Assembly (NCBI GenBank): GCA_964019425.1
Contig: OZ025780.1
Coordinates: 1,674,001 to 1,738,000 of the forward strand
Length of the DNA: 64,000 bases
Origin: Flectonema sp. DT1601
Taxonomy: Eukaryota
Direction: 5' to 3'
A model generated the notes under the pieces. It had not been told where the DNA came from. It searched no databases and saw nothing but the letters and a program-made list of their open reading frames with translations. Positions within the stretch are counted from its first letter, which is position 1, and each line of letters starts with the position of its first letter. Made by a program: the position numbers and the translations under genes. Below, piece by piece: positions 1 to 41,700 of this stretch.

Positions 1-344
1 TTTCATTTTATAATAAAATAATTTTTTCCTCAAATCCTAACCTCTTATTGTGGAGCTATCCCCTCTTCATCTCTAGTAGTGGGAGGTTGACAACAAAAAA
101 AAAAAAAAAAAAAAAAAAAAACGGAGAAAACAGATATTCAAAAAAAAAAAAAAACAACCATAATGCTTTAACAATGACTATAAATGTAATGATGTTTTCT
201 GTGGTCGTTTTACGTTATTTTAAAAAAGGAATTTAGTTCTTGACATCAACAGATGTGTAATTATTTTGTGTTTGGTTGTGGTTTGGGTTTTTGTAATTAT
301 TTTTCGTTTTCTCAGTTTTAGTATTTGCGACTAATTTAAAAACA

Positions 345-839
345 ATGGCCTGCGGATTAAACAGCTGTGGACCACCGCAACCGTGTCCGATGCCACAGCC
401 GGTTATCCCTCGTGGGTTACCTCCGCCAGCGTGCTTTCAACCACCTCAGTCATGTTGTCAGCCGCCTCCACCTCAGCCGTGCTGCTTACCGCCTCCACCT
501 CCACCGCAGCCATGCTGCTTGCCACCACCACCACCACCGCAGCCGTGCTGCCTGCCACCTCCACCTCCGCCGCAACAGTGCTGTCAGCCAGTTCAGTGTT
601 GTCCTCCAGTTGATAATTGTTGTGACAGAACTGATCGAATTGTAAATCCAATGGACCTATCTCCTCTTCCACCTGGTCTGAGAGATATGAATCCTTGCAA
701 CCCAGTAGCTTGTCCACAACCATATAGAGTTCCAGGGGGTGAAAACTGCCCTCCTTGGGTTCGCTGGGGAGGACCAGTTGGTTTCAACCCCGGCTGGGGT
801 GGCTCACTTTGGCCTGGGAATTCTAATAGTCGAAACTAA
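345..839 (+). CDS. Pro/Cys/Gln-rich low-complexity protein (164 aa) with QPCCLPPPPPP repeats
   Basis: ATG after A-rich context, Y-rich AG at 314-315, GC-rich ORF in AT-rich background; 11-aa (33-nt) repeats differ mostly at synonymous positions. Confidence 0.8.
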   Translation: MACGLNSCGPPQPCPMPQPVIPRGLPPPACFQPPQSCCQPPPPQPCCLPPPPPPQPCCLPPPPPPQPCCLPPPPPPQQCCQPVQCCPPVDNCCDRTDRIVNPMDLSPLPPGLRDMNPCNPVACPQPYRVPGGENCPPWVRWGGPVGFNPGWGGSLWPGNSNSRN

Positions 840-1371
840 GCTTTTTTGAGAATTGTATTGTTTGTTCTTTCCTTTGTTTCCCGTACCTCTAGCATGTCGA
901 ATTTCTGCACTCTAGCGAGTGCATGACAGTGTGGGCTATTTCCCTACGTGATTGGTGATTCTTACCGGTTGAGAACTCTCGTGTTGGCAGCCCATCGCAC
1001 GTTCTGAATGAAAGCCCTATACACGTATTATATTGTCTTGTCTTTCCCTTTTGATTGGCGCCTGTCGATAGCAGTGCACCTCCCCTTACACACCCTTGAT
1101 TTTATATATATTTTTCCTTTGTACTTGACCTGAGTTCTGGTTGTCGCGTTGCGTTGGTTTATAAGAGCATAACGCTTCCGAAATTGTTAAAAAAAAAAAA
1201 AAAAAAAAAAAAATTATTATATTGTTTTTTTGTACTCCCTTACATGTTGCCCATTTTTTCATTAATGTCAAGTATCAGTAACATGTAATACATCTTTTCC
1301 TCCCTTCAGAAAACATCTTTGTTGTGGTTTGATCCAGTGTGTTGTAGTGTGTTCATATATTATCTCTAACG

Positions 1372-3018
1372 ATGTCTTTAGTAAATCTATGTGATGATAT
1401 ATTGTTAGATATGTCAGTCTGTTTGGAGATTAGGGATCGTGTCAGATTGTCTCTCGTAAATAAAAAATTAAAAAGACTACTATCAATAAATAATATTGAG
1501 TCTTTGGACATGTCTAACACGATTCCATCCAAAGTTGAAAAAGTATTAAATTGGTTGATCCGTTGTAGGCATAGCAGTTTAAAATCTCTTAATTTACACG
1601 GTTGTTCATCAACACAGTTATCGACACTGTTGCCTAGTTTGTTTAATAATAATATTCACATTCAACGATTAAATGTACAACATTGTCCAAGCATTGAGGA
1701 ATCAACTATTCGTTGTATTGCACAACTGAAAGATTTGAGACAGTTGTCTTTATATGAAACGAGAGAGGGTTTAATTAACAGTAAAATCCTTGGTGAGATA
1801 TTCGAATCGTGTTCTAAATTGGAAATAATTGACATCAGAGGACAGCGGCTTGCCGATGACGTAATTGCTGCTAGAATGGCGGAGTTGCCGAATTTAAAAA
1901 AAATATCGTTGGTGGCGACGTCAATTACGGAGTTTGGTTTCAACCTTCTACTTCAAAAATGCAACCAATTACAACGAATAGGCTCAATGGACCTTCACAG
2001 TAATGGAGGACCGTTTGTAAGTGAGTCTGATTCTGTAGAAGAGCTACAAATCGGATATACTAATACACCTCTTTCCGTTGATATTTCAAAATTTCCAAAA
2101 ATAAAATTTCTTGGAGTTTCAGCTCTGTCTCTCGTCTGGTCAGGTATAGATTGGAGTGTGTTAGCCAAGTCAAAGACTATTCGTCAGATAACAGCTGAAA
2201 ATAATCGAAGTTACCCATCAGAATTTATTTCATGTCTTATTGCTGTTAGAAAACAATTAATTCATCTGAGTGTTGGTGAAATCGATGATTCAGATTTTGA
2301 ATCAGCCGTATCTGAAATGATTTCTATGAAACATCTTTCTGTTGAAAACCCCAGCGTGGGGTTACTTCAAAACATCTCTCAACTCCCTGAGCTACGTCAG
2401 CTTGAAATCGAGGAAGTGGATTCAGAAGTCTTTTCATCGTTTATATCATGGTTGTCTCTTTCTGATCAACGAGACACTTCTTTCGTTAACGTCAACGGAC
2501 TTCAATTGTCATTTTCGAATGAAAATGAATCTTCAACAGAACAAAATGATATAATCTCACTCATTAAAACCTGTAAACAGCTGACGTCGTTTTATATCGG
2601 AAGTCACAGTTGCGATACTGCGATGCTTATTAAATCACTTCCTGTCTTGCAGATGACGGATTTCAAAACAAGAGAGTTTGGAGGAGTTTTAGGCGATTCC
2701 ATCGACACGATTTCAATGATGAAAAATTTAGTGACTTTCGATTTTCCTTCTCATGTGTTGTCTTCTGTGGAGGCTGAAGCACTCTCAGAAGTAGTTTATT
2801 CTCTTCAGAAACTAGTTGTCGTTAATTTAGATCACCGATTCGTTTTCGAAGACAGATTCTTCTCGTGGCGTAAAATTAGTGGATCGGGTCCTCCTCGTTT
2901 TTTCAGACATTTCAACCCTTTTGGATACCTTGAAGAATCAGGTATCAAACCACATGCGACCTTCTTAACTATTTTTGAGGACTACAATGATTCTCGTTTT
3001 GGAATCATTAGGCCATAA
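1372..3018 (+). CDS. F-box/leucine-rich repeat protein (548 aa)
   Basis: N-terminal F-box-like segment (LVNLCDDILLDMSVCLEIRDRVRLSLVNKKL) followed by Cys-containing LRRs (LKSLNLHGC, IQRLNVQHCPSI). Confidence 0.8.
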   Translation: MSLVNLCDDILLDMSVCLEIRDRVRLSLVNKKLKRLLSINNIESLDMSNTIPSKVEKVLNWLIRCRHSSLKSLNLHGCSSTQLSTLLPSLFNNNIHIQRLNVQHCPSIEESTIRCIAQLKDLRQLSLYETREGLINSKILGEIFESCSKLEIIDIRGQRLADDVIAARMAELPNLKKISLVATSITEFGFNLLLQKCNQLQRIGSMDLHSNGGPFVSESDSVEELQIGYTNTPLSVDISKFPKIKFLGVSALSLVWSGIDWSVLAKSKTIRQITAENNRSYPSEFISCLIAVRKQLIHLSVGEIDDSDFESAVSEMISMKHLSVENPSVGLLQNISQLPELRQLEIEEVDSEVFSSFISWLSLSDQRDTSFVNVNGLQLSFSNENESSTEQNDIISLIKTCKQLTSFYIGSHSCDTAMLIKSLPVLQMTDFKTREFGGVLGDSIDTISMMKNLVTFDFPSHVLSSVEAEALSEVVYSLQKLVVVNLDHRFVFEDRFFSWRKISGSGPPRFFRHFNPFGYLEESGIKPHATFLTIFEDYNDSRFGIIRP

Positions 3019-3247: not shown

Positions 3248-4729
3248 ATGAGATTTGGAAGTATCTTGGAAACGGTTGGGCGGACACCAGTCGTGCGACT
3301 GACTCGAATGGGCCCAAAGAATGTAAATATGTTCGTGAAGTTGGAGTCTTTCAATCCAATGGGCAGTGTTAAGGACCGACTAGCCCTTGGCGTTATCGAA
3401 GACGCTGAGCAGAGCGGTAGCCTTAAACCAGGACAGACAGTAGTTGAAGCAACCTCGGGCAACACTGGAATTGGTCTTGCTATGGTTTGTGCTCAGAAAG
3501 GTTATCCTTTAGTTGTTACAATGGCTGAAAACATGTCCGTTGAAAGGAGGAGAATAATGAGATTTTTAGGAGCGAAAGTCATCCTAACTCCAGCTCACAT
3601 GAAGGCATTGGGAATGGTTCTAAAAGCTGAAGAGCTTTCTGACAAACACGGATGGTTCTACACCAGACAGTTCACAAACGAAGCCAACGCAGAAATCCAC
3701 ATGAGGACTACCGCACAAGAGATTCTTGAAGACTTCAAAGATGACAAGCTCGACTACTGGGTTACAGGATACGGAACTGGAGGAACATTAAAGGGAGTTA
3801 GCACCGTTTTAAAGAATTCTGAGCAAACAAAGAACACGAAAATCTGCCTCGTCGAACCAGACAACTCCGCCCTCGTAGCATCAAAAATTGAACAAACCTA
3901 CAAAGAGAACGGAGACCCAACAGAGTTTCATCCATCTTTTAGACCTCATCTAATGATGGGTTGGGTTCCTGACTTTATTGGAAAGTTAACAAATGATGGA
4001 AGTAAGAATGTTGATAATTTATATCAAGTAAGTGGTGAAGATGCTATGAACACTGCTAAACAATTAGCTCAGAAAGAAGGAATATTCGTTGGAGTCACTG
4101 CAGGTGCGACTATCGCAGGAGGACTTCAAGTTGCTAGCAAAGCACCAGATGGATCAAATATCCTTTGTATGGTTCCAGACACTGGTGAGAGATATTTAAC
4201 AACTCCTATGTTCGACTGCATTGAAACAGAAATGAATGAGGACGAAGTTGAAATCTCAAAATCAACTGACAGCGCTCGATTCGACACTGCTGCTCCTGCT
4301 CCAAAACCTGCCAAACCTGCAGCAGCTGTCCCAGCAACAGATGAGAGCAGAGCACACTTTCAAAAGGTTATTTCAGAAAATAAGATTGTGATATTCTCAT
4401 TGGAATGGTGTGAGTTTTGTTGGTCTGCCAAGAAATTCTTTACCAAGATTGGAATCAAGTACACACCTGTTAACATCGACTCTGCAGAAATGGCAAAAGA
4501 CAATTGGGGTGCACAGGTCCGTGCCGCTGCTACAGAAGTTACTTCATGCAAGACTATTCCACAGATATTCGTTGGTGGAAAGTTTCTTGGTGGTGCTACT
4601 GACGTCTTCAATGAATTTAAAGACGGACAGCTCCAAGCAAAACTAAAAGCAGCTGAATGTCCCTTCGATGATTCAGTTAAGGTAGACCCTTACAGTTTTC
4701 TTCCAAAGTGGTTGCATCCAAGATCGTAG
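3248..4729 (+). CDS. cysK: Cysteine synthase (O-acetylserine thiol-lyase, CysK family) fused to a C-terminal glutaredoxin domain (493 aa)
   Basis: FNPMGSVKDR (PLP Lys), EATSGNTG, GTGGT and PDTGERYL motifs; Ala/Pro linker; then WCEFCW, TIPQIF and GGATD glutaredoxin motifs. Start reassigned to ATG 3248. Confidence 0.92.
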   Translation: MRFGSILETVGRTPVVRLTRMGPKNVNMFVKLESFNPMGSVKDRLALGVIEDAEQSGSLKPGQTVVEATSGNTGIGLAMVCAQKGYPLVVTMAENMSVERRRIMRFLGAKVILTPAHMKALGMVLKAEELSDKHGWFYTRQFTNEANAEIHMRTTAQEILEDFKDDKLDYWVTGYGTGGTLKGVSTVLKNSEQTKNTKICLVEPDNSALVASKIEQTYKENGDPTEFHPSFRPHLMMGWVPDFIGKLTNDGSKNVDNLYQVSGEDAMNTAKQLAQKEGIFVGVTAGATIAGGLQVASKAPDGSNILCMVPDTGERYLTTPMFDCIETEMNEDEVEISKSTDSARFDTAAPAPKPAKPAAAVPATDESRAHFQKVISENKIVIFSLEWCEFCWSAKKFFTKIGIKYTPVNIDSAEMAKDNWGAQVRAAATEVTSCKTIPQIFVGGKFLGGATDVFNEFKDGQLQAKLKAAECPFDDSVKVDPYSFLPKWLHPRS

Positions 4730-5636: not shown

Positions 5637-7280
5637 ATGGCGCAGCAGTTAAGAGGTATAACGGACTTATGCAATGATACGATTATATGTATTTCAGCAT
5701 ACCTGACATTGCGAGAGAGGTCAAAGTTGATGATAACATCGAAAAGATATCAAACTTGTTTAAATAAAGTAATGAGAGTTAGTATTGATTTATCTAACAC
5801 ACATCCATCGAAAGCTGAACAAGTACTGATATGGTTGGCTGGTAATCAGGTAAGCGGTGTTAGGTCAATAGATTTACACGGATGTCCACTTAGTAATATC
5901 AGCAATCTGCTTATTGATATCATCAAAGCATATGGTCATATTCTACGATCAATAAACCTAGCACACTGTCCAAAAGTAGATGATAAAGTTATAGAAGCAT
6001 TGGCGACTCATTCACGAGACTTGGAGAGTATTACTTTATTCGAAGCGGGTAAGCTTAGTCAAAATGCAATTCATTCTCTTATAGAGAATTGCACGAGAAT
6101 ACGATTTTTAGATGTGAGAGCTCAACAGGCAGTTACAGATGAAACGGCTACTTTAATGTGCAACAGTTTAAAAGAATTACAGCAAGTCTTACTCGTTGGT
6201 ACTAATATTACTGTCAAAGGGTTTGTTGAGATCAGCAACACCTGTTCATCACTGGATAAAATTGGTTGCATTCAACTATCGGGTGAGTCTCTATCGGTTC
6301 CACCATTAGAATCTAGTTCTTTGGAGGAGTTGCAGATCACTTCTTGTGCGACTGATGTGCGAATTAATTTTAAAAAACTTCCAAAACTTACATTTCTCGG
6401 ATGCAATAGCGTTCCCATGGACCTCCTGAACTGGAACGACATCGCACAGTACTGTACTGATTTAAAACAAATTATGTTCGTGTCAGAGATTGGTTACTGT
6501 ACGGGGTTTTTAGAATGCCTCAGAAGACGTGCTGATCAGCTTCTACATCTCGCGGTAGGTCAGATTCCTGACACAGACTACGCCAGAGTGTTGTGGTCAA
6601 TGAAAAGATTGATTCAACTTAGAGTTCACTTTGTATCCCTTGGTCTGCTTCAAGTAGCTGCTGAACTACCCAGCTTACAGATGCTCACTTTAGTCGGATT
6701 CCCAAGAGAGAGTTTAAGCACTGGAAATGAACGAATCTTTGGTTGGCTATTCTCAACTATCACAAATCCATTTCGCAGTCTTCTTCATTTACATCTTGTG
6801 CTTGCTTCTGGTTGGGATGCAGTTCCCGTCTTGTTAAAAGCTTGTCCAATGCTGAGACATTTTCACTTTCATCCAACAAGAGCTCCAACGAATTTAAAAG
6901 AAATAATAAAATCACTTCCTGCAGAGCAGATGGAAACCTTTGTGTTGGCTGATTCATTCTCTATAGAAGACATTGAGGAGATCGTTCCTCTCCTTGTGAA
7001 AATGACGAAATTAACATCTTTAAGACTTGGAAGAGTATCAATTCCGATGGATGTCGCAACTGAATTGGTATTCAGTTTGCCAAACTTACAAGTATTTGAG
7101 TCTCCTGGATATGAGTTTAGTGCGTGGACTTGTTATGAGTCAGTTACTTCAGGGAAGAAATGGCTTCGACATGCTCCTACTAAGGGGTTTTACGAAAGTG
7201 ATGCGTTGAAGCCGAGTGGAGGATTTTTAACTCTTTTTAGAGATGTCAGTGATCCAGTCTTCGGCGTTGATATTCCGTGA
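5637..7280 (+). CDS. F-box/leucine-rich repeat protein (547 aa), paralogue of 1372..3018
   Basis: F-box-like start, LRRs (IDLHGC, INLAHCPKV), shared motifs with the first copy (DLSNTHPSKAEQVLIWL vs DMSNTIPSKVEKVLNWL); first ATG at 5637. Confidence 0.8.
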   Translation: MAQQLRGITDLCNDTIICISAYLTLRERSKLMITSKRYQTCLNKVMRVSIDLSNTHPSKAEQVLIWLAGNQVSGVRSIDLHGCPLSNISNLLIDIIKAYGHILRSINLAHCPKVDDKVIEALATHSRDLESITLFEAGKLSQNAIHSLIENCTRIRFLDVRAQQAVTDETATLMCNSLKELQQVLLVGTNITVKGFVEISNTCSSLDKIGCIQLSGESLSVPPLESSSLEELQITSCATDVRINFKKLPKLTFLGCNSVPMDLLNWNDIAQYCTDLKQIMFVSEIGYCTGFLECLRRRADQLLHLAVGQIPDTDYARVLWSMKRLIQLRVHFVSLGLLQVAAELPSLQMLTLVGFPRESLSTGNERIFGWLFSTITNPFRSLLHLHLVLASGWDAVPVLLKACPMLRHFHFHPTRAPTNLKEIIKSLPAEQMETFVLADSFSIEDIEEIVPLLVKMTKLTSLRLGRVSIPMDVATELVFSLPNLQVFESPGYEFSAWTCYESVTSGKKWLRHAPTKGFYESDALKPSGGFLTLFRDVSDPVFGVDIP

Positions 7281-18134: not shown

Positions 18135-18700
18135 TAGGTTCAGAGCAGCAATGAACTCTGAAAAACTAACTCACTCTCATCGGAGGTTCCTTTTTGATTC
18201 TATTCCATACAGATTGATATGGTTATTCGTGGTATGCGAGGGCATTAGACACGTGTCATTATTTCATGAAGAAGGGTTTTAGATACGGAATTTTTTTTTT
18301 TTATTTTAAAAAATTATTTATTACTCTCATTTACGCTCTCTCTGATTATTTCTTTCCTTTTTTTTTTTTTTTTTTTTTGTTTTTGAACCATTTTATTCTG
18401 ATCCTACCAGCCGAAGCTATAAAAACACAATCTCTTGTGATTGGATTACCCTGCTCCTCATCAGTTCCAGACTTACTTACTAACTAGTTGGAACCATTTA
18501 TAACAAAAAACTAATGCTAACTCTTGTTAAATCCAGAGCAGCTGTGACCTCTGAAAAACTGACTCTCTCCCATCAGAGATTCCTCTTGATTCTGTTCCCC
18601 TACTGATTGATGTAGTTATTCGTGTTGCCCGTAATTTTTTTATGCGAGGGCATTAGACGTGTGATTATTTCATGAGAAAGGGTTTTGGATTAGGAATCTG
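18135..18700 (+). repeat. Diverged direct repeat of about 150-170 nt (copies about 18135-18295 and 18530-18700)
   Basis: Colinear blocks CAGAGCAGC, CTCTGAAAAACT, GTTATTCGTG, TATGCGAGGGCATTAGAC, ATTATTTCATGA and AAGGGTTTT in both copies. Confidence 0.85.
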
Positions 18701-18985
18701 TTTTTTTTTTTAATATGACTAGTCCTATGCAGTTTTTCACTACTATTTTATTGTACCTTCTTATTGTACCTACACATTAATGTTTTCAAGCTGTAACGAC
18801 CTGCAGGGCATGGAATGCTCAACCTGTGGTGTAAGGTATCCAGTTATAATGATTCATGTCTAATTTGTTTCGTGTTAATCACTTGATTTATTTATCCAAG
18901 TTCTCCCCTCCTATTAGAAGGAATTTATACTCATGAGAGAGAGGTTGTATTTCGTTGATTTAAATTAGAAGAGAGGATAGTTAAA

Positions 18986-21900
18986 ATGTTGTCAAGTTCG
19001 CTTCCAATCGTGAAATGGATGAATGACATGGAGCAGGCTGGTGCTGTAAAAGTTATATCAAAAAGAATTACTGCTAATAGAGAGCATTTAATGAAATTTC
19101 AAGAAAACTTGGAAGGAATGTCACTGCAGGCAATCATATCACTGATGCTGTTGACATATAAAAGTGATAGCAATTTAGTTGAACGGTTACTTGCAATGTT
19201 AAAACGGAAAGAGTACTCGAAGATACCACTTTATGCTCCGTGGATAAAGCTGATTGATCAAGGGTTGAGTTGGCTTCCTACTACTAGTTCAGTTTCTTGG
19301 CAATACACGACTATAGAAGAAGAAAATAATTTTGAATTAATTTCGTACTGTATGTCGATAAAGAGAAATTATACTCCTGAGTATGAGAGGAGGAGTTCAC
19401 CTGAAAGTTTATTTTTTTTTGTTGGTTGTGGGAAGTCTGTTTCTATGTTAAATCCTCACTGGAGGTGTGAAATTGTTCACCAGCGATCCTCACGGATGCA
19501 AGTGATGTTCAGATTCCCGAGACATATTTCTGACTGTGGTGTTAGCACACTTCAACTTGCTGTCATATCTCCAAAACAAACTACATCAACACCAAACTTT
19601 GAACGTAAATTCCTAACTGACGGAGTTAGACATCTTTCTTGGCTATTTAAAGATTTCGATGATTATTATTTATCTCAAACACTTACCCCGATTAGTAGAT
19701 CACAACCAAATATCGCCATAGAGGACATGCTGTCAGAATGGCTCCTCCCTCCGACAAAATCACCCGCTCATGGGGTTTCTATATCGTCTCCAAGAGGATC
19801 CGGTAAAACAATATTATCTCAAAAAGTATTTTTATGGGGTCTACAACACGAAGTATTAGTTATTTACTGTGACCTTTCACTCTTTATTAATCGTGAGAAT
19901 ACATCAGTCCCGTTAAGAGGTGAAATTCAAAAATACCTAAGTAAGAATTATAAATTTACATACATCAGACACGTAGATAGTTGTATGAAGTTGTTTGTTT
20001 TTGATAATGTGGATGAATGTGAAAAAGTCCATTTTGGATCAGGCATGTTTAAGGAAATATCAAAGTGCGTCGCAGAATCTCCAGGCTATCATACTAGCAC
20101 TCATAAGGTTATGTGTCTCACTACCAATGAGTTTGTGCAGTTTTCAGAACCGAACTTTTCTGGTTGTATCAACTACAGATTAGACCCTCTTACGCGTGTG
20201 CAATCAAACACTTTAATCAAGCGGTCTCTATCGTCATCGTGTAGTGTTGCACAACAACTCGTTAAATCATCAAAGGGAAAAGGGTCTCTCTTAAAAATGG
20301 GTATTGCAGTACTTAACAACAAGAAATTAAATAAATGTAAAGAACCTGTCGACTTTTCAGATGAAAAAGGAATTCTGAGAAGTTATTTTCAAATTATTAA
20401 AAATAATCCATCTCAGGCAGATGCTCTACACCAACTGGTAGTTCCGTCGGTGGTGAAAAACCCACCTTCAGGTGTTTTTAAAGACAGTATGAAATATAAC
20501 GAAAATATACCTCTTTCGGAACTGAAATTACCATTGGTGGATACTGCGTCAGATAAGAGTTGTTTTTACGCTGTTGATAGAGATTTGGCTGCTATGGTAT
20601 ATGCTAATAGTTGTTGTAGGAGTACTGATACGTTTAAGGCAATCACGGAATCGGAATCGGGAGAGAATTCAAAATTAACATTTGTTGCTGATGTGTTGCA
20701 CTGTTACCTTGACATGATCCCTGATCATTCCTCTGAAGAGTTCATTTCATCTCATTCAACTATAGGAACTGATACTGACATTGCAGGTAGAACAATCCTT
20801 CACTACTCTGCCGCAAGAGGATACTCAAATGTCATAAAATTCTTATTAACATACTGTCAAGAAGCGATTGATACCACTCAGATTGACAAGTTGGGATATA
20901 CTGCTTTGGCATTTTCAGTTTTAAATAATAATATAGGTTGCGTTGAGTTGTTGTCTGCTGTGAAGTCTGCTGTCAATGCTCCAGGGTTTAGTAATTCCCT
21001 TTCAAAGGGAACTAATATCGCACAAATGTGGGCGATACATGGAAATGAAGAGATCTTCGAAATCTTAATTAGTACTCAAATTGAAAAATCAAATTTCTTT
21101 TTAACGAACGAGTTAGAAAGCGCATCGAAACTGTTAGCAGTAGCGGCTGTCAGCGGAATTTCAAAAACTATGTTTGAAAAATTAATAATCATTTTGACAA
21201 AGTCTCAAACACTGTCACAAATCATATCCGCAGACAATAAACGAACAGCAGCACACGCTGCGGTTAGAGGCGGACACATCCACCTGTTGGATTATCTGGC
21301 AGAAATTGATATTTCACTTGTCACGCTTCCCGACTCAGAAGGTCGTTGTCTTCTACATTACGCAGCAATCATGGGAGAATTTCAAATTTTTGATTGGTAC
21401 ATAAAATTACTGCTAAAACACAAGGGTGAGATCTCACTGGATTCTCTCAGTGACAATTCTGGCTGCACTCCTCTTCACTATTGTTGTATGTTGGGATACG
21501 TTGCCTACGAGGCTCTATTAAATTGCCTAAGTGAAAATGCCACAGACCCTTCTATCTACATAAATCACTTACTAGACACATCTGATAAATCAGGGTATCT
21601 TCCTATTCATTATGCATGTAGTTTTAGTGATTGTGCGACTGTGGAGGCGATTTTGCAAGAGAGACCTGATCAACTTGGTCAAGCGAGTACTGTTCACAGG
21701 AGGACACCGTTGATGCTTGTTGCAAAACATGATAATTTAAAAGCGTATTACATGTTGATGAAGATGATTAAAAAGTTTAAAAAAGATGATCGAAAGAAGT
21801 TGATTAACGCCGTAGACTATAGGAAGCAAACGGCATTACAAATTGGAGTATCAACATCGTGTAACTATTCATGGGTTTCGGAAGACTTGGTATCCATTTC

Positions 21901-22765
21901 TGCGACTGACGTCTTCCATAGAGATGATCTTCAGTGTGATGCTAACCTTATCGCAGCTGCAAAAGGAAAATCACGTTTTATTAAATTAGTTTTTGGAAAA
22001 TTTTATTTTAACATATCAATCAATGACGTGTTTGGAATGCATGTCCTTCATCATGTTTGCGCAAGTGGTCATTCAGATATCCTGAAATATCTGTTGGAGT
22101 CAGCAGAAGAATTACTTATACTTCCATACACAACTAATCATATTGGACAGACTCCATGGCATATTATAGCTTTGTCAGGAAGTGTGGAATCGTATTCTGC
22201 AATGTCAGGTCAAAAAGGAATTACTGAAGTTGATAATTACGAACGAACACCTCTTCATTGCGCATTAGATTCTCGTAATGTTGGTATCAGTTTGGAACTT
22301 TTATCACACGGAGTTAATCAAAATGCTCAAGACATAAACGGTGAGAGTTGCGTTTTATATTTAGCAGCGTGGTGTAATTGCGAAGTCCTTCAAAAAATGA
22401 CGCAACTCACATCTCCAAAAACAAACTTCTCGCTGACTGACAATCGAAAGAGAACAGCTATTCATATTGCTTCACTCTGTCATAATCGGACTTTTGTGCG
22501 TAGGTTGCTCTCTCTTTGTGATGTTTCTGCCTTATCTCGAGATGAGGCAGGGCTGACACCCCTTCACTACGCTGCTTCAGTAGTTGATAGAAGTACTTGT
22601 CGTCAGCTATTATTTAAAGCACCAGAACTAGTGACTGCTCGTGATAATAAAGGATTAACTCCAATGCACTACGCAATGATTGGACCCCACACTAACTCAT
22701 TGAAATTTTCTTGGGGACGGTATTCGTCTTTTCTTCCAAATCACATTTACTACACGGACAGTTGA
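18986..22765 (+). CDS. NACHT/STAND-like P-loop NTPase with C-terminal ankyrin repeats and an N-terminal degenerate ADP-ribosyltransferase-like domain (1259 aa)
   Basis: Walker A SPRGSGKT (19787-19810), Walker B LFVFDNVDE, more than a dozen ankyrin-like units (GRTILHYSAARG, GCTPLHYCC, GLTPLHYAA). Confidence 0.8.
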   Translation: MLSSSLPIVKWMNDMEQAGAVKVISKRITANREHLMKFQENLEGMSLQAIISLMLLTYKSDSNLVERLLAMLKRKEYSKIPLYAPWIKLIDQGLSWLPTTSSVSWQYTTIEEENNFELISYCMSIKRNYTPEYERRSSPESLFFFVGCGKSVSMLNPHWRCEIVHQRSSRMQVMFRFPRHISDCGVSTLQLAVISPKQTTSTPNFERKFLTDGVRHLSWLFKDFDDYYLSQTLTPISRSQPNIAIEDMLSEWLLPPTKSPAHGVSISSPRGSGKTILSQKVFLWGLQHEVLVIYCDLSLFINRENTSVPLRGEIQKYLSKNYKFTYIRHVDSCMKLFVFDNVDECEKVHFGSGMFKEISKCVAESPGYHTSTHKVMCLTTNEFVQFSEPNFSGCINYRLDPLTRVQSNTLIKRSLSSSCSVAQQLVKSSKGKGSLLKMGIAVLNNKKLNKCKEPVDFSDEKGILRSYFQIIKNNPSQADALHQLVVPSVVKNPPSGVFKDSMKYNENIPLSELKLPLVDTASDKSCFYAVDRDLAAMVYANSCCRSTDTFKAITESESGENSKLTFVADVLHCYLDMIPDHSSEEFISSHSTIGTDTDIAGRTILHYSAARGYSNVIKFLLTYCQEAIDTTQIDKLGYTALAFSVLNNNIGCVELLSAVKSAVNAPGFSNSLSKGTNIAQMWAIHGNEEIFEILISTQIEKSNFFLTNELESASKLLAVAAVSGISKTMFEKLIIILTKSQTLSQIISADNKRTAAHAAVRGGHIHLLDYLAEIDISLVTLPDSEGRCLLHYAAIMGEFQIFDWYIKLLLKHKGEISLDSLSDNSGCTPLHYCCMLGYVAYEALLNCLSENATDPSIYINHLLDTSDKSGYLPIHYACSFSDCATVEAILQERPDQLGQASTVHRRTPLMLVAKHDNLKAYYMLMKMIKKFKKDDRKKLINAVDYRKQTALQIGVSTSCNYSWVSEDLVSISATDVFHRDDLQCDANLIAAAKGKSRFIKLVFGKFYFNISINDVFGMHVLHHVCASGHSDILKYLLESAEELLILPYTTNHIGQTPWHIIALSGSVESYSAMSGQKGITEVDNYERTPLHCALDSRNVGISLELLSHGVNQNAQDINGESCVLYLAAWCNCEVLQKMTQLTSPKTNFSLTDNRKRTAIHIASLCHNRTFVRRLLSLCDVSALSRDEAGLTPLHYAASVVDRSTCRQLLFKAPELVTARDNKGLTPMHYAMIGPHTNSLKFSWGRYSSFLPNHIYYTDS

Positions 22766-23310: not shown

Positions 23311-24129
23311 ATGAGTTTAGTACTTAGGTCAAGCAGGGTTTTGCGTACGGCTTTTCGTCCTAGTGCTCCTCTTCATGGAGCACTTCGACCAACTGGAGTC
23401 AGGTTTTTGAAGATGGCATTGCATCCTGATGACCCTCGTAACTTGGAGACAAAAGAGTACGTTGATGAAAACCAAACTAGACTACAGAAAGTTGCTAGAC
23501 CTGGAACTAAACCGGGAAACGCTCTTCAATGGGTTATGACCAAATTGGTACACTTTAGAGACTTTGCTTTCGCTTCATCTCTTTGGCCGCTTACGTTTGG
23601 ACTTGCCTGTTGTGCCGTTGAAATGATGCACACGATGTGTTCCCGTTACGATCTTGATAGATTTGGGATTGTTCCTCGTGCTGTGCCTAAGTATGATTAT
23701 GACAGTCTTATTAAAAAAAAAAAAAAAAATCATTTTAATTTTTTTAAAACAAACAAACAAACAGACAAGCTGACTTAATCATCGTAAGTGGAACTCTTTG
23801 TAATAAAATGGCTCCCATGTTTCGAGTCTGTTATGATCAGATGCCTTATCCAAAGTGGATAGTTTCTATGGTTTGTGATTTTTTATTTATTTTTTTTATT
23901 GTGTTTTTTTATTTTAACAAAAAATGTGTTAAAATAACAAAAAAATCAGGGATCATGTGCGAACGGAGGAGGTTACTACCACTATTCCTATTCAGTGGTA
24001 CGAGGTTGTGATCAAATAGTACCAGTTGATTGTTATGTACCTGGGTGTCCTCCACCGGCAGAAGCTCTTTTATACGGACTCCTACTGCTATCAAGGAAGA
24101 TTAGAAATCAGGAGATTCACACAATCTAG
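23311..24129 (+). CDS. NDUFS7: NADH:ubiquinone oxidoreductase PSST/20 kDa Fe-S subunit (221 aa), join(23311..23690,23765..23870,23950..24129)
   Basis: [32 protein letters not shown] and VPGCPP motifs after removing two introns; Arg-rich mitochondrial presequence. Confidence 0.96.
23691..23764 (+). other. Spliceosomal intron, 74 nt, phase 2
   Basis: GTATGA...(AAAC)n-AG; gives VPRAVPK|QAD, matching NDUFS7 spacing. Confidence 0.93.
23871..23949 (+). other. Spliceosomal intron, 79 nt, phase 0
   Basis: GTTTGT, T-rich then A-rich, AAAAATCAG; gives VSM|GSCANG. Confidence 0.95.
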
Positions 24130-28692: not shown

Positions 28693-31600
28693 ATGAATAC
28701 ATCGTACAGAATAGGAGATGAGGTACATGGAGCAATAAGTAATCAGTGGTGGAGGGGTGTTATTATTGAAGTCAATGCGATTGAGGGAGTAGCTCGGATA
28801 CGATGGGAAGATGATACTTCGTCGGAGTTAGGATTTGTTGATATTCGGTATCCTCCACCATCAACTCATGCTGCAGTAACCCCCCAGGACAGGTTTGGGT
28901 TTAGCTCTGGTGGATTACGTTCATTGGCTATGTCAAGACAGGCAATTCAAGAAGCAACCCCCCGAGCTCCTTTGGTGAGAAAACGAGGAGCGAATAACGT
29001 CCGAAAATCAAATTCTCAACGACTTACCAAAATAGTAACTCACACTCCATCGACACAATCAAAAAACGAATACGACTTTACCTACATGAAAGTTGTTCAG
29101 CACACACTGGCAACACCAAAACCTATTTGGTACAGTTGCGCTTTCTTAACTTTAGGAGCGATCTTCTTCTTACTTCTCATGATTTTGGTACCACCTTCTG
29201 AAGACACTAAAATCTGGTGGGGAGCATGTATAGTTTTTTGCGGTGCAACGGTGTTTCAGGTTTTGTTGTTTTTGAATAACGACCGTTTGGCTAGAAAGCT
29301 TAACCAGACATACATTGGTGGAGGGAGGCTACCAGAATTAATGAAGGGAGAAGAACTGGCAGAGGTTCTAAAAAGAGCGGAGCAAAAAGTAACTCAACGA
29401 CATGCGATGTTTGATATTGTAAATACATTGAGAGAGAGAATTGTTGACACTTGGCATAATTCACCAATCATTACTAGTATTGAGAATTGTTATAAGGCTG
29501 CGGGATTCAACAAGGCAGCTGACATCATTCATGATAAATCTGAAAGTGAAATAGATTGGTATGGAAAATGGCTTCCATTACATGAAGAAATGAAAACTAA
29601 AGATGGGAAGATATTAAAAGTTGAGTTCGGTTCGAATATGAGAAAGTTATATTTTCATTTGGGAGCCGGGTACTTAAACGGAGCCATGTACGGGGCGACC
29701 CCACGACCTATTCTACACGGAAAGAGGCAATGGGTTGAAAGTTTTCAAAATAATCCAGTTGAATTCAGATTCAAAGCCCTGTCTCTCCGAATTCGACAAA
29801 CAGCCACAGAAGTTGCGCAGTTCCTGGGTGCCGATCCCGACGATACTGTCCTCCTCACGAATCAAGATACTGCATTTTCGAGTATCATAAAAAGTCTTCC
29901 ATGGGAGTGTGGTGATTGTTTATTAGCCTTTGACTTCGGAAATTCAAATACATACAGAGCAGCTCACAAATACTTGGCCACAAGCCATGGTGTATTTATT
30001 GATTTTATAGATATTGAGCTTCCTATCTCTAATAAAGATATAAAAAAACAGGTAAAAAACCATCTTAAAATTCGTAAAAACAAAGGAGAGTTACCAAAAA
30101 TTGCACATGTGCCGCATGTGACTGCGTGTACTGCTTTTGTTTTACCGATTAGAGAATTGACAGAAATATTTCACAGTTTTAATATTTCTGTGATTGTTGA
30201 TGGTAATCAAGCTGTCGGTAACATTCCTGTTGATTTGTCAAAAATAAAAAGTGATTGGTACTATGGAATGCTAAGCAGATGGTTATTCGCAGCTCCAGGA
30301 GTCAGCTTCTTAGTAACTCAACCTCACAAACAAAAAGTAACGACAACTCTAACTGTTGCTTACAATGATGGAGATGGTTACACTAGTGAGTTTGGTTATA
30401 CTGGTCTTCAAGATTGGTCAGCATATTTCTCTTGCATTGATTCGTTTGATTTTATTAATAAGATGTGTGGTGGATTCCCAACAGTATACGAGTACAATAG
30501 TAGACAAGCTGTGAGAGCTGTTCATATTCTAACTACAGGATGGAACACAGCATGCTATCAAGGATCTTCTTCAAAGTATGGCTGCATGCCAATCGTTCTA
30601 TTGCCTGGAGGAACACATTCCCAAGAATGTGATGCGTTTACCCTAACGGAATACCTGATAGCAAAGTATCAAATTACAGCTCATATTTTATCTGTTCGTT
30701 TTGATGGGCATGACATACTAGCTGTCAGATGTTGTTGTCAAATCTACACTGATGATAATGATTGGTGTAGACTGCGAGATGCTATCTTACAAATTAACCC
30801 ACCACCACATACAAACCGTGAACCTTATAAACACTTAGAAATGAGTCCTGTTTTGATCGATTATCAACCTTGTAAGGACGCAATGGGTCGTACGCTTGAT
30901 GAAATTCAAGTAATTGATGAAGAAAGTGAACAAGATGAATTAATAAATAGTATCCAGTCAGGATCGTACGGTTCAATCACCATAGTAAGACCAGAGTCCT
31001 TTAATAGTCAAGGTTTTAGGAGGGATATTTATCAACCAACATATACAAACATAGTTCATCATTTGGTACAGGTCGCACCAAAGATTCTATTAATTATTAT
31101 CCCAGCGATTCTAATGTGGTGTTCTGTGATCTTGTTTATCTGTCTACTTGGGTTTTCAAAACCTAGTGATAGTATTGATGCTTGGAAATGTTGTGTTGCT
31201 TACTTGGTAGTTGCGGTTCTGTTTGTGTCGTATGCTGATCAAGGCATCCTTAAAAAGAAGAGAAAACTTAGAAAATATCAACCATCTCCGAAAGACATTT
31301 TACTGAGGAAAGGAATGGAAAATAAAATGGCGAAGCTCGTTGATAACAGAGAAAGCCTTTTATCTCAGTCATTGACTGACTTAGTGCCTGGGAATTTAGA
31401 GGCACTTGGATCAAAAGTTTATCGTCTTGCAGGAAGAATTCCACAGGCTCATGAAGACCCGAACCGACCACTGATTGAGTGGAATACCAGATGGACATCA
31501 CTCGGAAGTAATATGAGCCTTCGACCATTCAGCTCTACCATACTAAAAGTTGCTTACGGTAGTAACGTACGACGGTTATACTTTCGTCATGAAAAAGGAT

Positions 31601-32876
31601 ATATAAACGGAGCCTCGTATGGGGCCACACCTATCCCAATTATTGAAGCGCAGTATAAGTGGATGAAAATAATTCAACAAAATCCCTGGGAATGGAGATT
31701 TAAAAATTTATTCTCCCGAGTGAGTGAAGTAGAAGCCATGATCGCTAGTGAAATTAATTCTAACCCCGCTGACACAAAGTTAATGATAAATGCTAACGCG
31801 GCTACGTCAACAGTTTTAAAAAGTATCATTTGGAAAGACACCGACAGAATATTAATATTTGACATCGATTATGATGCGACTAAGCTGGCAGTTCAGTGGC
31901 TATCAAGGAGGTTCGGAATTACCGTTTTAACTATGAAAGTCAAACTACCAATCACAGACTATGACTTGTGTAATCAGCTGGGTGACTACCTTGCAGAAAT
32001 ACGCAATCGCAATCCGGAGGAGCTTCCGTTTCTTGCTAACTTCTGTCACATCACATCGAAAACTGCATATGAGTTTCCAGTCAGGAAACTGACTAAAGTC
32101 TTTCATTCATTTGGTTGCCTTGTTATGGTTGATGGTGCCCAAGCAGTGGGTCAGACCAGTGTAGATGTTCAGTCTTATGGATGTGATTGGTATTGTGGAA
32201 CACTTCACAAATGGATGTATACTTGTCCGGTATGTCTTACTAACAAATAATAAAAAAAAAAATTCAAAAAAAAAAAAAATAATAAAAAAAAAACCCCAAA
32301 CAGGGAGTTGCATTCTTGGTATCAAGAGAGGAAAAACATCGAGAAACCAAATCACTTACTGTGACTCCAGGAGATAACTCCTTTGGAAAATTATCGTATC
32401 AAAACATATCAGAAGATGTTAGCACATGGATAACTGCATTAGACTCAAGAGATTTCGTAGATTACGTCTTTGGTGGGATTCACAGCATAAGAAACGCTCT
32501 CTCTCAACAATGTAAGGAAGTAGTTTCATTCCTACAGTCTGAATGGAACACGACTGTTTTTCAAATCGACAGTGATGGAAAAGCACATTACAACTTACTT
32601 CCTATTATCCCTTTACCAAATGGTGAGGGTGCTTCACCTTTAGATGCTTTAAAAGTTATGGCGTATCTCGCAATGAAGCATGACCTGACAGCTTTTTGTA
32701 TGGTGATTCCTATAACTAAGAATGGAACAACAACAGATACTCTCTGTATTCGATGCACAATCCAAATATGGACTGATATGGATGACTGGAAAACTCTGGC
32801 GAAAGCAGTTAAAAGCCTCGGAGGTGACTACGGATCTCTGAATATAGTAAAAGGAGCAGTTTGGATGAAGGGATGA
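28693..32876 (+). CDS. Tudor-like domain followed by two [2 TM + class-V PLP-dependent aminotransferase/C-S lyase-like] modules (1369 aa), join(28693..32229,32304..32876)
   Basis: Two copies of YxNGAxYGATP, HxT, VDGxQAVG and DWYxG motifs; the second has HKW; resembles the isopenicillin N epimerase / Egt2 / L-cysteine desulfhydrase group. Confidence 0.85.
32230..32303 (+). other. Spliceosomal intron, 74 nt, phase 0
   Basis: GTATGT...TACTAAC...poly(A)...AAACAG; gives HKWMYTCP|GVAFL, parallel to FAAPGVSFL in copy 1. Confidence 0.92.
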
Positions 32877-37992: not shown

Positions 37993-40900
37993 ATGAAGAT
38001 TACCGGCTTATCGGATGAAGTGTTGAGCAGCAGTTGGTTCATTGAAAGCCACAGCGCTACATCTGAAGACACATTTACAATTGTTTTAAAAGAGGGAGTA
38101 GATGAGCTGAAATCGGCTGAAATGATTTGCCGTGAAGGAGGGGTATTAAAATATCAACCGATCAAAGAAAGAGAATCCCCAACAGGTAACATGAGCTACA
38201 TAGCAGTCAGAGCTATTGCGATGGATGACGGAGTTGTTTCCATTCCGGAGATCGATGGGATTTCGTTTAGTGAAATAATCAAAACCGATGAAGGCAATTC
38301 AAGCATTTGTGTAATTGGTGGTATCGACTTGTCATTAGAACAGTGGGTTGAGATTCGTTTAAAACTAGTAAAAAGCAATTCTTATTTTATAACATCGAAA
38401 TCACATCGGTGTTTTAGACTGCCAACTCATGGAGTTTACAGCAGTAAGACACCAGCTGTTTTACGACCAATTCCGTTATCCGGAAGACCAATTGAAGAAC
38501 ATATTTACCACTTGTCATATCATCTGGCTGCTTCACTTGTAATTAACAACATAGACGCCACTAACACTGAAAATAAAAATATTCAGGGGGGTATCGGCGA
38601 CTCGAGGTTCACAGTTATTACAATGATTAGTCCAAATATAAAATGCAAATCATGCACGACTGCAATAAATAGATCTCTGAGTAAGAATTTAAAATTGACT
38701 CCGATGGTTGACTTTACTCAGGTTCTTGATAAAAAATGTTTATATGTAGCAATAAGACACGATAAATCATCTACTTCTGATGATAGAGAGGCTGAAATTA
38801 GAAAATTAATATCGGAGGTAGAATCTCAACTAACGGAACTAAACTTAGCAGCAGAACAAATTGATACAGTCGAGGTTATTATTAGTGAGAATGATAGAGA
38901 ATTGGATGAAATATGTAACAAAGGTTATCAAGAAAAGATAGCAGAACCATCTTATGAATTTAACATTCCGACTGTTGGAGAAACCATTCAGGCAGATCAA
39001 GAAACTGAAATCGCATCTCCGCCACCGGTTTGTGAAATCGAAGAGTTTTCTTTTGTTGTAAAAGGAATGACATGTGCTGCTTGTGCATTGGAAATAGAGC
39101 ATCACTTTGAGGACCACTTCGAAGATGTTCAAAAAGTTGCTGTTAACTTCGCGATATCGAACGCGAAAATAACTGTAAAAAAGAATGAATACACTCCTCA
39201 GCAATTATCTCAGATTATTAACGGGCTTGGGTTTACAGCCATAGCAATCTCTTCTAACGATGAGGCATCAAGGGACCTACTTAGAAAATCACTGAGCAAT
39301 GAAGATGACATCATTCAAAAACGTCGTGCAGCATACAGCAGTATGGCATTTTCAGTTCCACTTCTGTTTTTGATCCTGATACTTTCGCACATTGATATGG
39401 TTCACAAAGTGTTATCAACTAAAGTATTATGTGACGTTACCGTGTTACCACTTATCGAAATAGCAGTCTCAACACCTGTTGTGTTTTATTGGGGTTCTCC
39501 ATTTTTCATAAAAACAAAAATCGCACTCAGCAACAAAACATTCACCATGGACGTGTTGGTGACATTGGGAGTGTCGACCGCATATTTTTCTTCATTGGGA
39601 ATGCTTATAGCCGCATTGCGTAATAATAGTGATAAAAAATACCACTATGGATTTCATACTGCTGCTTCATTGATTGCTTTTATGTTGTTAGGGAAGTATA
39701 TTGAACAAAGGGCTAAGTCGAAAACAACATCAGCATTGCTTCACTTAATGGATTTACAACCGTCAGTTGCAGCTGTATTAGTGCCTGAATGGTTATCAAT
39801 TCCAATAAAACAAATTGTTAAAGGAGACTCAGTGAAAGTATCAGGTTTAACTAACGTACCAACAACATCAATCGTTGAATCTGGTGAGCTTCAAGATAAT
39901 AACGGAAAGATATTTCGAAAAGGAGCTATTGTTGAAGAAGGAACAATAATAAAGCAACCCTGCACAGTAGTTCTAACATCAACAGCCAATGGTACTATTG
40001 ATGGCAAGGCTGAGGTACTACGAGGTGAATACATGGAACAACCTGTCTCAGAAGTACAAAAAGGTGACTTCGTCAGAGTCACTGCCGGAGGATCAATTCC
40101 TGTTGATGGAGAAGTAAAATCTGGAGAAATGGCAGTCGATGAAAGTATGCTCACAGGCGAATCAATACCTGTACCAAAAACTGTATCTGATAAAGTAGCA
40201 GGTGGTAGTTTATGCAAAGATGGCTCAGCAGTCGTTAGAGTCACTGCCGTTGGAGCAGACTCATGCGTCTCTCAAATTATTGCACTCGTCAGCAATGCTC
40301 AAACATCTAAAGCACCTATTCAGAAGTATGCCGACAGGGTTGCTGGGGTATTTGTCCCAGCTGTAATTATCTATTCTGCTGTTGTTTTTACTATTTGGTT
40401 TCTTCTTGGAGTGACTGAAACATATCCTGAACACTGCAAGAAGGATGATATCTGTATCAGCCTTGCGATGAATTTCCTTATTGCAACCTTAGTCATTGCA
40501 TGTCCATGTGCGATGGGACTCGCTACACCAACAGCGGTAATGGTTGGAACTGGTATCGGTGCGAAGAATGGAATATTTATAAAAGGAGGAGACATCCTTG
40601 AGCAAGCACACCATTGCAACACCGTTATATTTGATAAGACGGGTACATTATCTAGTGGGGATATCTCAGTTATAGAGTGTCAACACAGTTGTTCAACTCC
40701 TCCTCAAATTCACTTGGCTGCAATTAGAGAAGTGGAAGATCAGTCATCGCACCCAATAGCAATATCAATTAACCACTTCATCGGTGACGTGGGTGAAAAA
40801 CCAACCGTCGACAACCATAAAACGATACCTGGAAAGGGTGTGACAGCTACTGCTAATAATTTCGTAGTTAAGATTGGTTCTTATGCTTGGTTTAAACCTG

Positions 40901-41700
40901 AAGAGATTCCTTATCCTGATATTAACGCTGCTGCAGAGCAATGGTTAGCTGGGGGTTTCACAGTTGTTGTAGCAACAACACAGAAATTAGAATCACAAGA
41001 AGCCCCGACAGTATCAATATTTGCTCTTAGAGATCAACCAAAACCTGAAGCAACCGCCGTAGTAAATCATCTTCAAAGAAAAGGCATTGAAGTATACCTT
41101 GTGTCTGGTGATGCGAAGTCTGCAGCTCATCATTTTGCAAGTTTGGTAGGCATCCCTCAACGAAGAGTGTTCGCAGAACAACTACCAAAAGAAAAAGCTG
41201 ACATTGTAGAAGCAATCCAAAAGGGACAACTTCAAGATGAGAGTGAACTAGAAAGTTCAATTGCAGTCGACGTAGAGATGTCAGATGTCAGAATGTTAGC
41301 CTCAGATGAAGCAGACGACAGTAAGAAGAACACGGTTGCGTTTGTTGGAGATGGAATTAACGATGCTGTTGCATTGGCAGCTGCTGATGTTGGTATTGCT
41401 TTAGGTGCCGGGACATCAGTAGCGCTTGAAGCAGCATCGTGTGTTTTAACTAGAAATAACCTTCGTGATGTTGTTACTTTCTTAAGCCTCTCTACTACAG
41501 TCATGAACAGGATTAAGTTAAACTTTTTCTGGGCTTTTGGTTACAATGTCTTAGCCATTCCTATTGCCAGTGGATTTTTCTATCCAATTTGGCATTGGCA
41601 ACTACCACCTACCGCAGGTGGTATCGCGATGATCTTTTCGTCTATTGCAGTGTTGTTGTCTTCGTTACATTTAAAAATGTTTTCGCCTCCGAAATTTTAG
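37993..41700 (+). CDS. Copper(I)-transporting P1B-type ATPase, ATP7/CopA-like (1235 aa)
   Basis: GMTCAAC metal-binding domain, TGES, CPC, DKTGT, SSHP, GDGIND, and YN and MxxSS in the last TMs. Confidence 0.95.
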   Translation: MKITGLSDEVLSSSWFIESHSATSEDTFTIVLKEGVDELKSAEMICREGGVLKYQPIKERESPTGNMSYIAVRAIAMDDGVVSIPEIDGISFSEIIKTDEGNSSICVIGGIDLSLEQWVEIRLKLVKSNSYFITSKSHRCFRLPTHGVYSSKTPAVLRPIPLSGRPIEEHIYHLSYHLAASLVINNIDATNTENKNIQGGIGDSRFTVITMISPNIKCKSCTTAINRSLSKNLKLTPMVDFTQVLDKKCLYVAIRHDKSSTSDDREAEIRKLISEVESQLTELNLAAEQIDTVEVIISENDRELDEICNKGYQEKIAEPSYEFNIPTVGETIQADQETEIASPPPVCEIEEFSFVVKGMTCAACALEIEHHFEDHFEDVQKVAVNFAISNAKITVKKNEYTPQQLSQIINGLGFTAIAISSNDEASRDLLRKSLSNEDDIIQKRRAAYSSMAFSVPLLFLILILSHIDMVHKVLSTKVLCDVTVLPLIEIAVSTPVVFYWGSPFFIKTKIALSNKTFTMDVLVTLGVSTAYFSSLGMLIAALRNNSDKKYHYGFHTAASLIAFMLLGKYIEQRAKSKTTSALLHLMDLQPSVAAVLVPEWLSIPIKQIVKGDSVKVSGLTNVPTTSIVESGELQDNNGKIFRKGAIVEEGTIIKQPCTVVLTSTANGTIDGKAEVLRGEYMEQPVSEVQKGDFVRVTAGGSIPVDGEVKSGEMAVDESMLTGESIPVPKTVSDKVAGGSLCKDGSAVVRVTAVGADSCVSQIIALVSNAQTSKAPIQKYADRVAGVFVPAVIIYSAVVFTIWFLLGVTETYPEHCKKDDICISLAMNFLIATLVIACPCAMGLATPTAVMVGTGIGAKNGIFIKGGDILEQAHHCNTVIFDKTGTLSSGDISVIECQHSCSTPPQIHLAAIREVEDQSSHPIAISINHFIGDVGEKPTVDNHKTIPGKGVTATANNFVVKIGSYAWFKPEEIPYPDINAAAEQWLAGGFTVVVATTQKLESQEAPTVSIFALRDQPKPEATAVVNHLQRKGIEVYLVSGDAKSAAHHFASLVGIPQRRVFAEQLPKEKADIVEAIQKGQLQDESELESSIAVDVEMSDVRMLASDEADDSKKNTVAFVGDGINDAVALAAADVGIALGAGTSVALEAASCVLTRNNLRDVVTFLSLSTTVMNRIKLNFFWAFGYNVLAIPIASGFFYPIWHWQLPPTAGGIAMIFSSIAVLLSSLHLKMFSPPKF

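Follow-up and report, generated by a model that had tools for sequence, protein, structure and literature searches.

Results

The window analysed here, a stretch of 64,000 nucleotides from Flectonema sp. DT1601 (contig OZ025780.1), is AT-rich eukaryotic DNA. Our subject is one of its open reading frames (ORFs), which encodes a protein of 1259 residues; the protein database places the start at Met12, giving 1248 residues (P0001). The protein is built of a front domain probably derived from ADP-ribosyltransferases (ARTs), a divergent P-loop nucleoside triphosphatase (NTPase) and an ankyrin array (Table 1). An effector-NTPase-repeat layout, as in NLR-like receptors (NLR for nucleotide-binding, leucine-rich repeat), had been proposed in the original prediction, which was made by reading the sequence alone. 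The three parts are indeed present in that order, and every peptide quoted in support of the proposal occurs in the translation. Ankyrin repeats are the sole family called in a Pfam scan of the protein. A membrane segment was considered and rejected (top 19-residue hydropathy 1.49).

Table 1. Features of the ART-NTPase-ankyrin gene. Positions are those of the window.
Feature	Window positions	Residues	Strand	Basis or motif
ORF	18986-22765		+	1259 aa, uninterrupted frame
ART helical half and beta-1 (R-S-E clade, eukaryote-type)	19112-19315	43-110	+	profile searches
Gln106 at position of NAD-binding Arg	19301-19303	106	+	profile alignment
Probable beta half of ART fold	19316-19567	111-194	+	glocal register, not significant alone
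Tyr121 at STS serine (best register)	19346-19348	121	+	
Glu162 at catalytic Glu (best register)	19469-19471	162	+	
Divergent P-loop NTPase	19760-20335	259-450	+	motifs, ESM Atlas, profile alignments
Walker A	19787-19810	268-275	+	S268-PRGSGKT-275
Walker B	19991-20017	336-344	+	L336-FVFDNVDE-344
Predicted helical region	20336-20770	451-595	+	secondary structure, presumed place of STAND helical/winged-helix domains, not assigned
Ankyrin-repeat array, divergent	20771-22693	about 596-1236	+	Ank_2 E=1.4e-55, 12 stretches

Profile comparisons show residues 43-110 to be homologous, at the level of sequence, to eukaryote-type ART domains. The reference set came from a metagenome motif scan that yielded 116 loci with 114 motif-bearing stretches. 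Of these, 77 are distinct and at least 150 residues long, and all six that were checked belong to PF01129. Because this set was chosen by motif, it provides no measure of Arg or Ser conservation. HMMER profiles of non-redundant subsets of 6, 9 and 23 references matched the front domain with P = 4e-6, 1.4e-6 and 1.3e-5, respectively. The best of these matches spans residues 43-110, and the 11 profiles tried ranged from 1.4e-6 to 9e-3. With each of three profiles the front domain ranked first against 5,170 controls, of which 5,000 were shuffles, 169 were real segments and one was its own reverse. Gln106 aligned to the NAD-binding arginine in all six profiles (posterior 0.69-0.99), which bears out the earlier proposal that the Arg of the YRG motif is replaced by Gln.

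The original prediction had followed the order of R-S-E (Arg-Ser-Glu) clade ARTs through about residues 40-180. The helical half and beta-1 stand above chance, but the beta half does not do so alone: from beta-2 to the end, 270 of 300 shuffles do at least as well as its -2.6 bits, and 394-425 of 2000 shuffles equal it when it is anchored after beta-1. It is thus conceivable, though in our judgement unlikely, that the front lacks a complete ART fold, with either a helical ART relic attached to a beta domain of other origin or a match due to chance. Scaling the P value to a library the size of Pfam, which puts the best of 11 profiles at an E of about 0.03, is in keeping with that view, as is a blind ESM Atlas search of the front domain, in which the top three matches were DUF7207 (recognition low, 1765). 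Set against it, the helical half and beta-1 alone score 25.8 bits, a value that none of 300 shuffles and none of 169 real segments attained. The whole domain (residues 43-191) also threads in order with few gaps in glocal alignment, at a score of -2.0; 150 shuffles got no higher than -15.1, and 110 real segments no higher than -20.8. Strands are predicted, in a low-confidence model, at 117-122, 143-148, 160-167, 170-176 and 190-194, the places expected of ART strands. The same blind search returned an ART-labelled cluster at 0.89, with ART on 10% of its members, and unnamed rotifer clusters made up 14 of 30 matches (best 0.91); we treat these clusters as a lead only. DUF7207 was over its cut-off in none of 351 genomes, and our literature search found nothing on it.

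Several other results weigh against an ART assignment. Pfam, PHROGs, NCBIfam and PADLOC gave no ART or NACHT match; the Pfam check recommended for the N-terminus returned no family at E<=10 for either residues 1-210 or residues 36-190. Alignment to bacterial ARTs with hhalign gave a probability of 1.5%, and residues 1-42 are not above chance alone (as candidate helices upstream of eukaryote-type ARTs, which we rejected, they were equalled by 759-866 of 2000 shuffles). No fold match was obtained for the front domain, whose single-sequence models were too poor to serve as fold queries (predicted local distance difference test, pLDDT, 35 and 53.5) and so do not bear on the fold either way. A profile of 12 bacterial ARTs, chosen by Pfam match rather than by motif and validated by PDB matches, reached P=0.003 over residues 81-113 only; bacterial-only profiles proved too distant and were set aside.

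In the bacterial references Arg, Ser and Glu are invariant (12/12), while just 6/12 keep the Gly that follows the Arg of beta-1. At the corresponding places in the front domain, the reading depends on the register. Four eukaryote-type profiles put Tyr121 at the STS serine with a posterior of 0.44-0.50 and Ser120 with 0.20-0.33, and two profiles that include bacterial rows put other residues there. Glu162 falls at the catalytic Glu with a posterior of 0.83-0.98 in five of six profiles and 0.48 in the sixth, within a half that has no signal alone. Between beta-1 and beta-2 the front domain is about 8 residues short. The statements that the STS motif is altered and the final Glu kept hold only in the register that places these residues so. 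Passages of one source describe the ART arginine as positioning NAD+ and the STS motif as stabilising the pocket (PMC8120803), which makes a pseudo-enzyme the straightforward interpretation. We consider the front domain probably an inactive ART derivative; the pseudo-enzyme proposed originally fits the apparent loss of the Arg. The best register, Q-Y-E, would echo the H-Y-E clade and the Q-Y-T of PARP9, with the Tyr assignment a coin toss.

Tandem small ART genes in two proteobacterial genomes (G079, C11; G215, C4 and C46; e.g. L016, L021-L023, L025-L028) carry Ala, Ile or Val in place of the Gly after the beta-1 Arg.

The head could instead be enzymatically active, as an atypical ART or NADase whose triad is Q-Y-E or Q-S-E, in which case oligomerisation would lead to NAD+ depletion or target modification, as with TIR and TeTIR heads. 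Glu162, which the best register puts at the catalytic position, a Tyr at beta-2 like that of the H-Y-E clade, and the poorly kept Gly of the bacterial references are compatible with activity, and Table 1 of PMC7955679, a source seen in excerpt, lists PARP9 (Q-Y-T) and ART4 (G-S-E) with mono-ADP-ribosylation activity. However, the Arg is invariant in the bacterial set, the posterior of Tyr121 is at most 0.50, the gap between beta-1 and beta-2 is short, and from one sequence conservation of Q, Y and E is not demonstrable. We regard an active head as improbable. The fuller proposal, a euglenozoan NLR-like receptor whose R-S-E-fold ART effector has moved to a PARP-like Q-Y-E triad and is still active, seems to us very unlikely. 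If true, an active Q-Y-E head would be a new NAD-consuming effector class on STAND (signal transduction ATPases with numerous domains) proteins, in a free-living protist.

Residues 259-450 form a P-loop NTPase of the ASCE (additional strand, catalytic E) division, in which Walker A, Walker B and the sensor strand (V375-MCLTTN, last residue Asn381) keep the ASCE order. Its sequence makes membership of the STAND class likely, as originally proposed. In the ESM Atlas, the neighbours of residues 221-590 are mostly STAND: nSTAND_NTPase4, NPHP3_N, nSTAND3 and NACHT clusters lie at 0.95-0.96, the first match is at 0.96 (recognition 3322), and among the ten matches listed nine carry a Pfam family, which for eight is NACHT, nSTAND or NPHP3_N; a value of 0.95 is reached by about one in 100 shuffled proteins. 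Our own profiles, in contrast, do not separate STAND from AAA+. These were built, with a Walker A filter, from 30 NACHT, 16 NB-ARC, 8 nSTAND3 and 17 other P-loop proteins, and three of the listed matches to the protein were among the sequences used. Local alignment yielded weak scores (P 0.001-0.04; 0.0055 for NACHT). Glocal alignments of the core ran in order, with z of 7.4 for NACHT, 5.5 for NB-ARC, 1.3 for nSTAND3 and 6.8 for other P-loops, or 5.8, 3.8, 0.9 and 4.4 with Walker A held fixed. The NACHT profile needed the fewest long insertions, and nSTAND3 was ruled out (z at most 1.3).

Membership of the NACHT family, named in the original prediction, is not proven at the level of motifs and profiles, and the data in part speak against it. 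The NACHT and generic AAA+ scores are alike (-7.5 and -6.8) and no better than those of P-loop proteins outside the class. Walker A has Ser268 in place of its first Gly, Asn381 stands at the sensor Arg of the NACHT profile, and no GxP motif, a feature of the STAND helical domain, is visible; G-K-G-S-L-L (residues 432-437) lies near its expected place in the NB-ARC alignment, in an uncertain register. The Pfam scan gave no PF05729 match to the NTPase and only weak AAA_14 (E 0.037) and AAA_7 (E 0.16) matches. In STAND NTPases a winged-helix domain comes after the helical domain, and here residues 451-595 are predicted to be helical, in a model of low confidence (pLDDT <50). The spacing of Walker B fits the NACHT consensus hhhhD[GAS]hDE, as quoted in passages of PMC12258605, with N in place of [GAS] (LFVFD-N-V-DE).

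The ankyrin array, the repeat part of the original prediction, is certain. A local repeat profile gave 11 matches across it, mostly weak, and identity to the listed non-self matches (119 of 483) is 21-31%. We presume the array to be the sensor.

Searches for relatives of residues 1-590 found the protein itself and nothing else in a 5.8-billion protein set (7,443 candidates of 692-2204 residues) and among 1.84 billion representatives. None of 139 pattern matches in metagenome contigs was confirmed, and the best match among PDB sequences had an E of 2.5. A look for sequencing runs listed none, which carries no information on expression. A phage search with residues 36-190 gave no relative; a viral motif scan gave five matches, which is chance level, and was discounted. 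Counting paralogues had been suggested as a check: the two protein searches contain none, the assembly itself not being part of the count.

The G+C content at third codon positions is 0.315 in the gene and 0.29-0.39 in nine neighbouring ORFs, so that recent gene transfer is not indicated. The plus strand holds 24 of the 25 frames of at least 150 residues in the window, the sole exception being antisense to a Thr-rich ORF. The next gene downstream is nuclear NDUFS7 (23311-24000), whose short GT-AG introns contain many A and T runs; comparing it with PDB sequences gave no placement of the clade. For Diplonema papillatum, passages of PMC10161547 report genes arrayed in one direction, introns of the GT-AG type and pectin enzymes. 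Because it has unidirectional frames, GT-AG introns and a pectin acetylesterase (56977-58278), we liken the window to that of a diplonemid-like euglenozoan.

A non-coding element, roughly 180 bp long, occurs twice immediately upstream of the gene; its copies (18141-18305 and 18534-18712) are 76% identical and each end in a T run. The element has no Rfam match at E<=1, its folding is not unusual (z -0.8 to 1.4), and a 13-base probe of it finds just these two copies in the window. The two copies may represent paired small RNAs or a 5' region that is repeated.

Elsewhere in the window, positions 3248-4729 encode a cysteine-synthase-like PALP enzyme fused to glutaredoxin; proteins of six proteobacterial genomes share 53-64% identity with the enzyme part, which may have been acquired by gene transfer. 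On either side of it lie two similar intronless leucine-rich repeat (LRR) proteins (1372-3018 and 5637-7280), which are probably F-box/LRR paralogues. A 1185-residue frame (28693-32250) has two aminotransferase class V domains with hydrophobic segments before each, and 37993-41700 encodes a P-type ATPase of the heavy-metal kind that has a long extension at its N-terminus. A Thr-rich ORF (58741-63576) encodes a mucin-like surface protein with Cys-rich repeats.

Discussion

We tentatively favour the reading that this protein is an NLR-like STAND switch with a pseudo-ART head that serves as adaptor or decoy. By analogy with STAND proteins, the repeats would hold the nucleotide-bound NTPase shut until a ligand on the repeats triggers nucleotide exchange and oligomerisation, which would in turn cluster the ART-derived heads. 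Clustered heads may then act as a protein-binding adaptor or decoy, rather than by NAD+ turnover, for example to bring in an active ART or to sequester an inhibitor of ARTs. The most likely role of such a switch would be surveillance of non-self or stress, and this is also the weakest step of the scheme. The STAND biology behind these functional steps is described in passages of the bacterial NACHT preprint (10.1101/2022.07.19.500537). An immune function, in this protein, is suggested by that analogy only.

Immune NLRs usually occur in expanded families, and the absence of paralogues therefore counts against an immune NLR: neither very large protein search holds a paralogue or orthologue of residues 1-590. 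The same anatomy could belong to a scaffold or regulator outside immunity, like NPHP3 or TANC, its two enzyme domains having turned into surfaces for interaction. NPHP3 and TANC are single-copy STAND-repeat proteins, and the lack of paralogues is what such a scaffold would predict; the degenerate NTPase motifs and the housekeeping or metabolic genes next door agree with it as well. The inactive head of NPHP3, described in passages of the TeTIR preprint (10.64898/2026.09.21.753143), offers a parallel. Housekeeping scaffolds, however, usually keep detectable orthologues, and none was found for residues 1-590; the low identity of the repeats to their listed matches would fit fast evolution, although poor sampling of the clade could also account for it. 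We hold the scaffold to be rather unlikely and continue to prefer the NLR-like switch with a pseudo-ART head.

STAND receptors are known to consume NAD+ through heads of the TIR, sirtuin and TeTIR types. A head with an ART fold, whether active or a decoy, would bring these receptors another NAD-linked effector type, and would extend the NLR-like architecture to a probable diplonemid. In the literature on NACHT in diplonemids we found a single, apparently unrelated paper, judged from a part of its text. The protein is a concrete candidate for the question of receptor-based innate immunity in free-living marine protists; its value is limited in that it is a single orphan sequence with decayed motifs and a putative function.

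No ART-STAND-ankyrin protein was present in the literature searched (titles, abstract openings and passages). Neither the bacterial NACHT preprint nor either of two fungal NLR surveys uses the term 'ribosyl' in its main text, and the passages available of the ParA preprint, PMC7159879, the TeTIR preprint and PMC3482391 hold no such layout. An NLR-like variant with an ART-derived head would thus make a new layout.

Its parts can be compared with known systems. The eukaryote-type PF01129 ARTs (L055-L170), which may be labelled 'rotifer-like', align with the helical half and beta-1, as described above, but differ in that the present protein has Gln for Arg and a beta half unrecognisable alone. 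In two of these references an ART precedes LRR repeats in one frame and has the Arg and Ser motifs (L091:29-1720, minus strand; L123:449-1891, plus strand). The motif GxxGxGK[ST] occurs in none of the 11 ART reference frames of at least 340 residues, so this layout lacks a P-loop.

The predicted pseudo-ART of LRRC9 is likewise joined to repeats and has been given a speculative defence role. In the passages of PMC7955679 that treat it, this domain is compared with PARP and TASOR domains, is flanked by LRRs and is conserved across eukaryotes; they mention no NTPase, whereas one is present here. Fungal NACHT-ankyrin NLRs (T-NACHT/ANK) have the same effector-NTPase-ankyrin layout and the same D-x-h-D-E spacing in Walker B, according to passages of PMC12258605. 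The N-termini named there are Goodbye, HeLo, HET, patatin, PNP_UDP, RelA_SpoT, sesB and amyloid, in contrast to the ART-like head here; the NTPase of the present protein also differs in lacking a PF05729 match, and no paralogues were found. Bacterial NACHT proteins have a comparable layout, as far as passages of 10.1101/2022.07.19.500537 describe it.

The TeTIR-NACHT proteins TEP1, NWD2 and NPHP3 place a head derived from an NAD enzyme directly before a STAND NTPase, and the TeTIR of NPHP3 is a precedent for an inactive enzyme head on a NACHT protein. As presented in the passages available of 10.64898/2026.09.21.753143, these proteins combine a TIR-like fold with WD40 or TPR repeats, whereas the protein described here would combine an ART-like head with ankyrin repeats.

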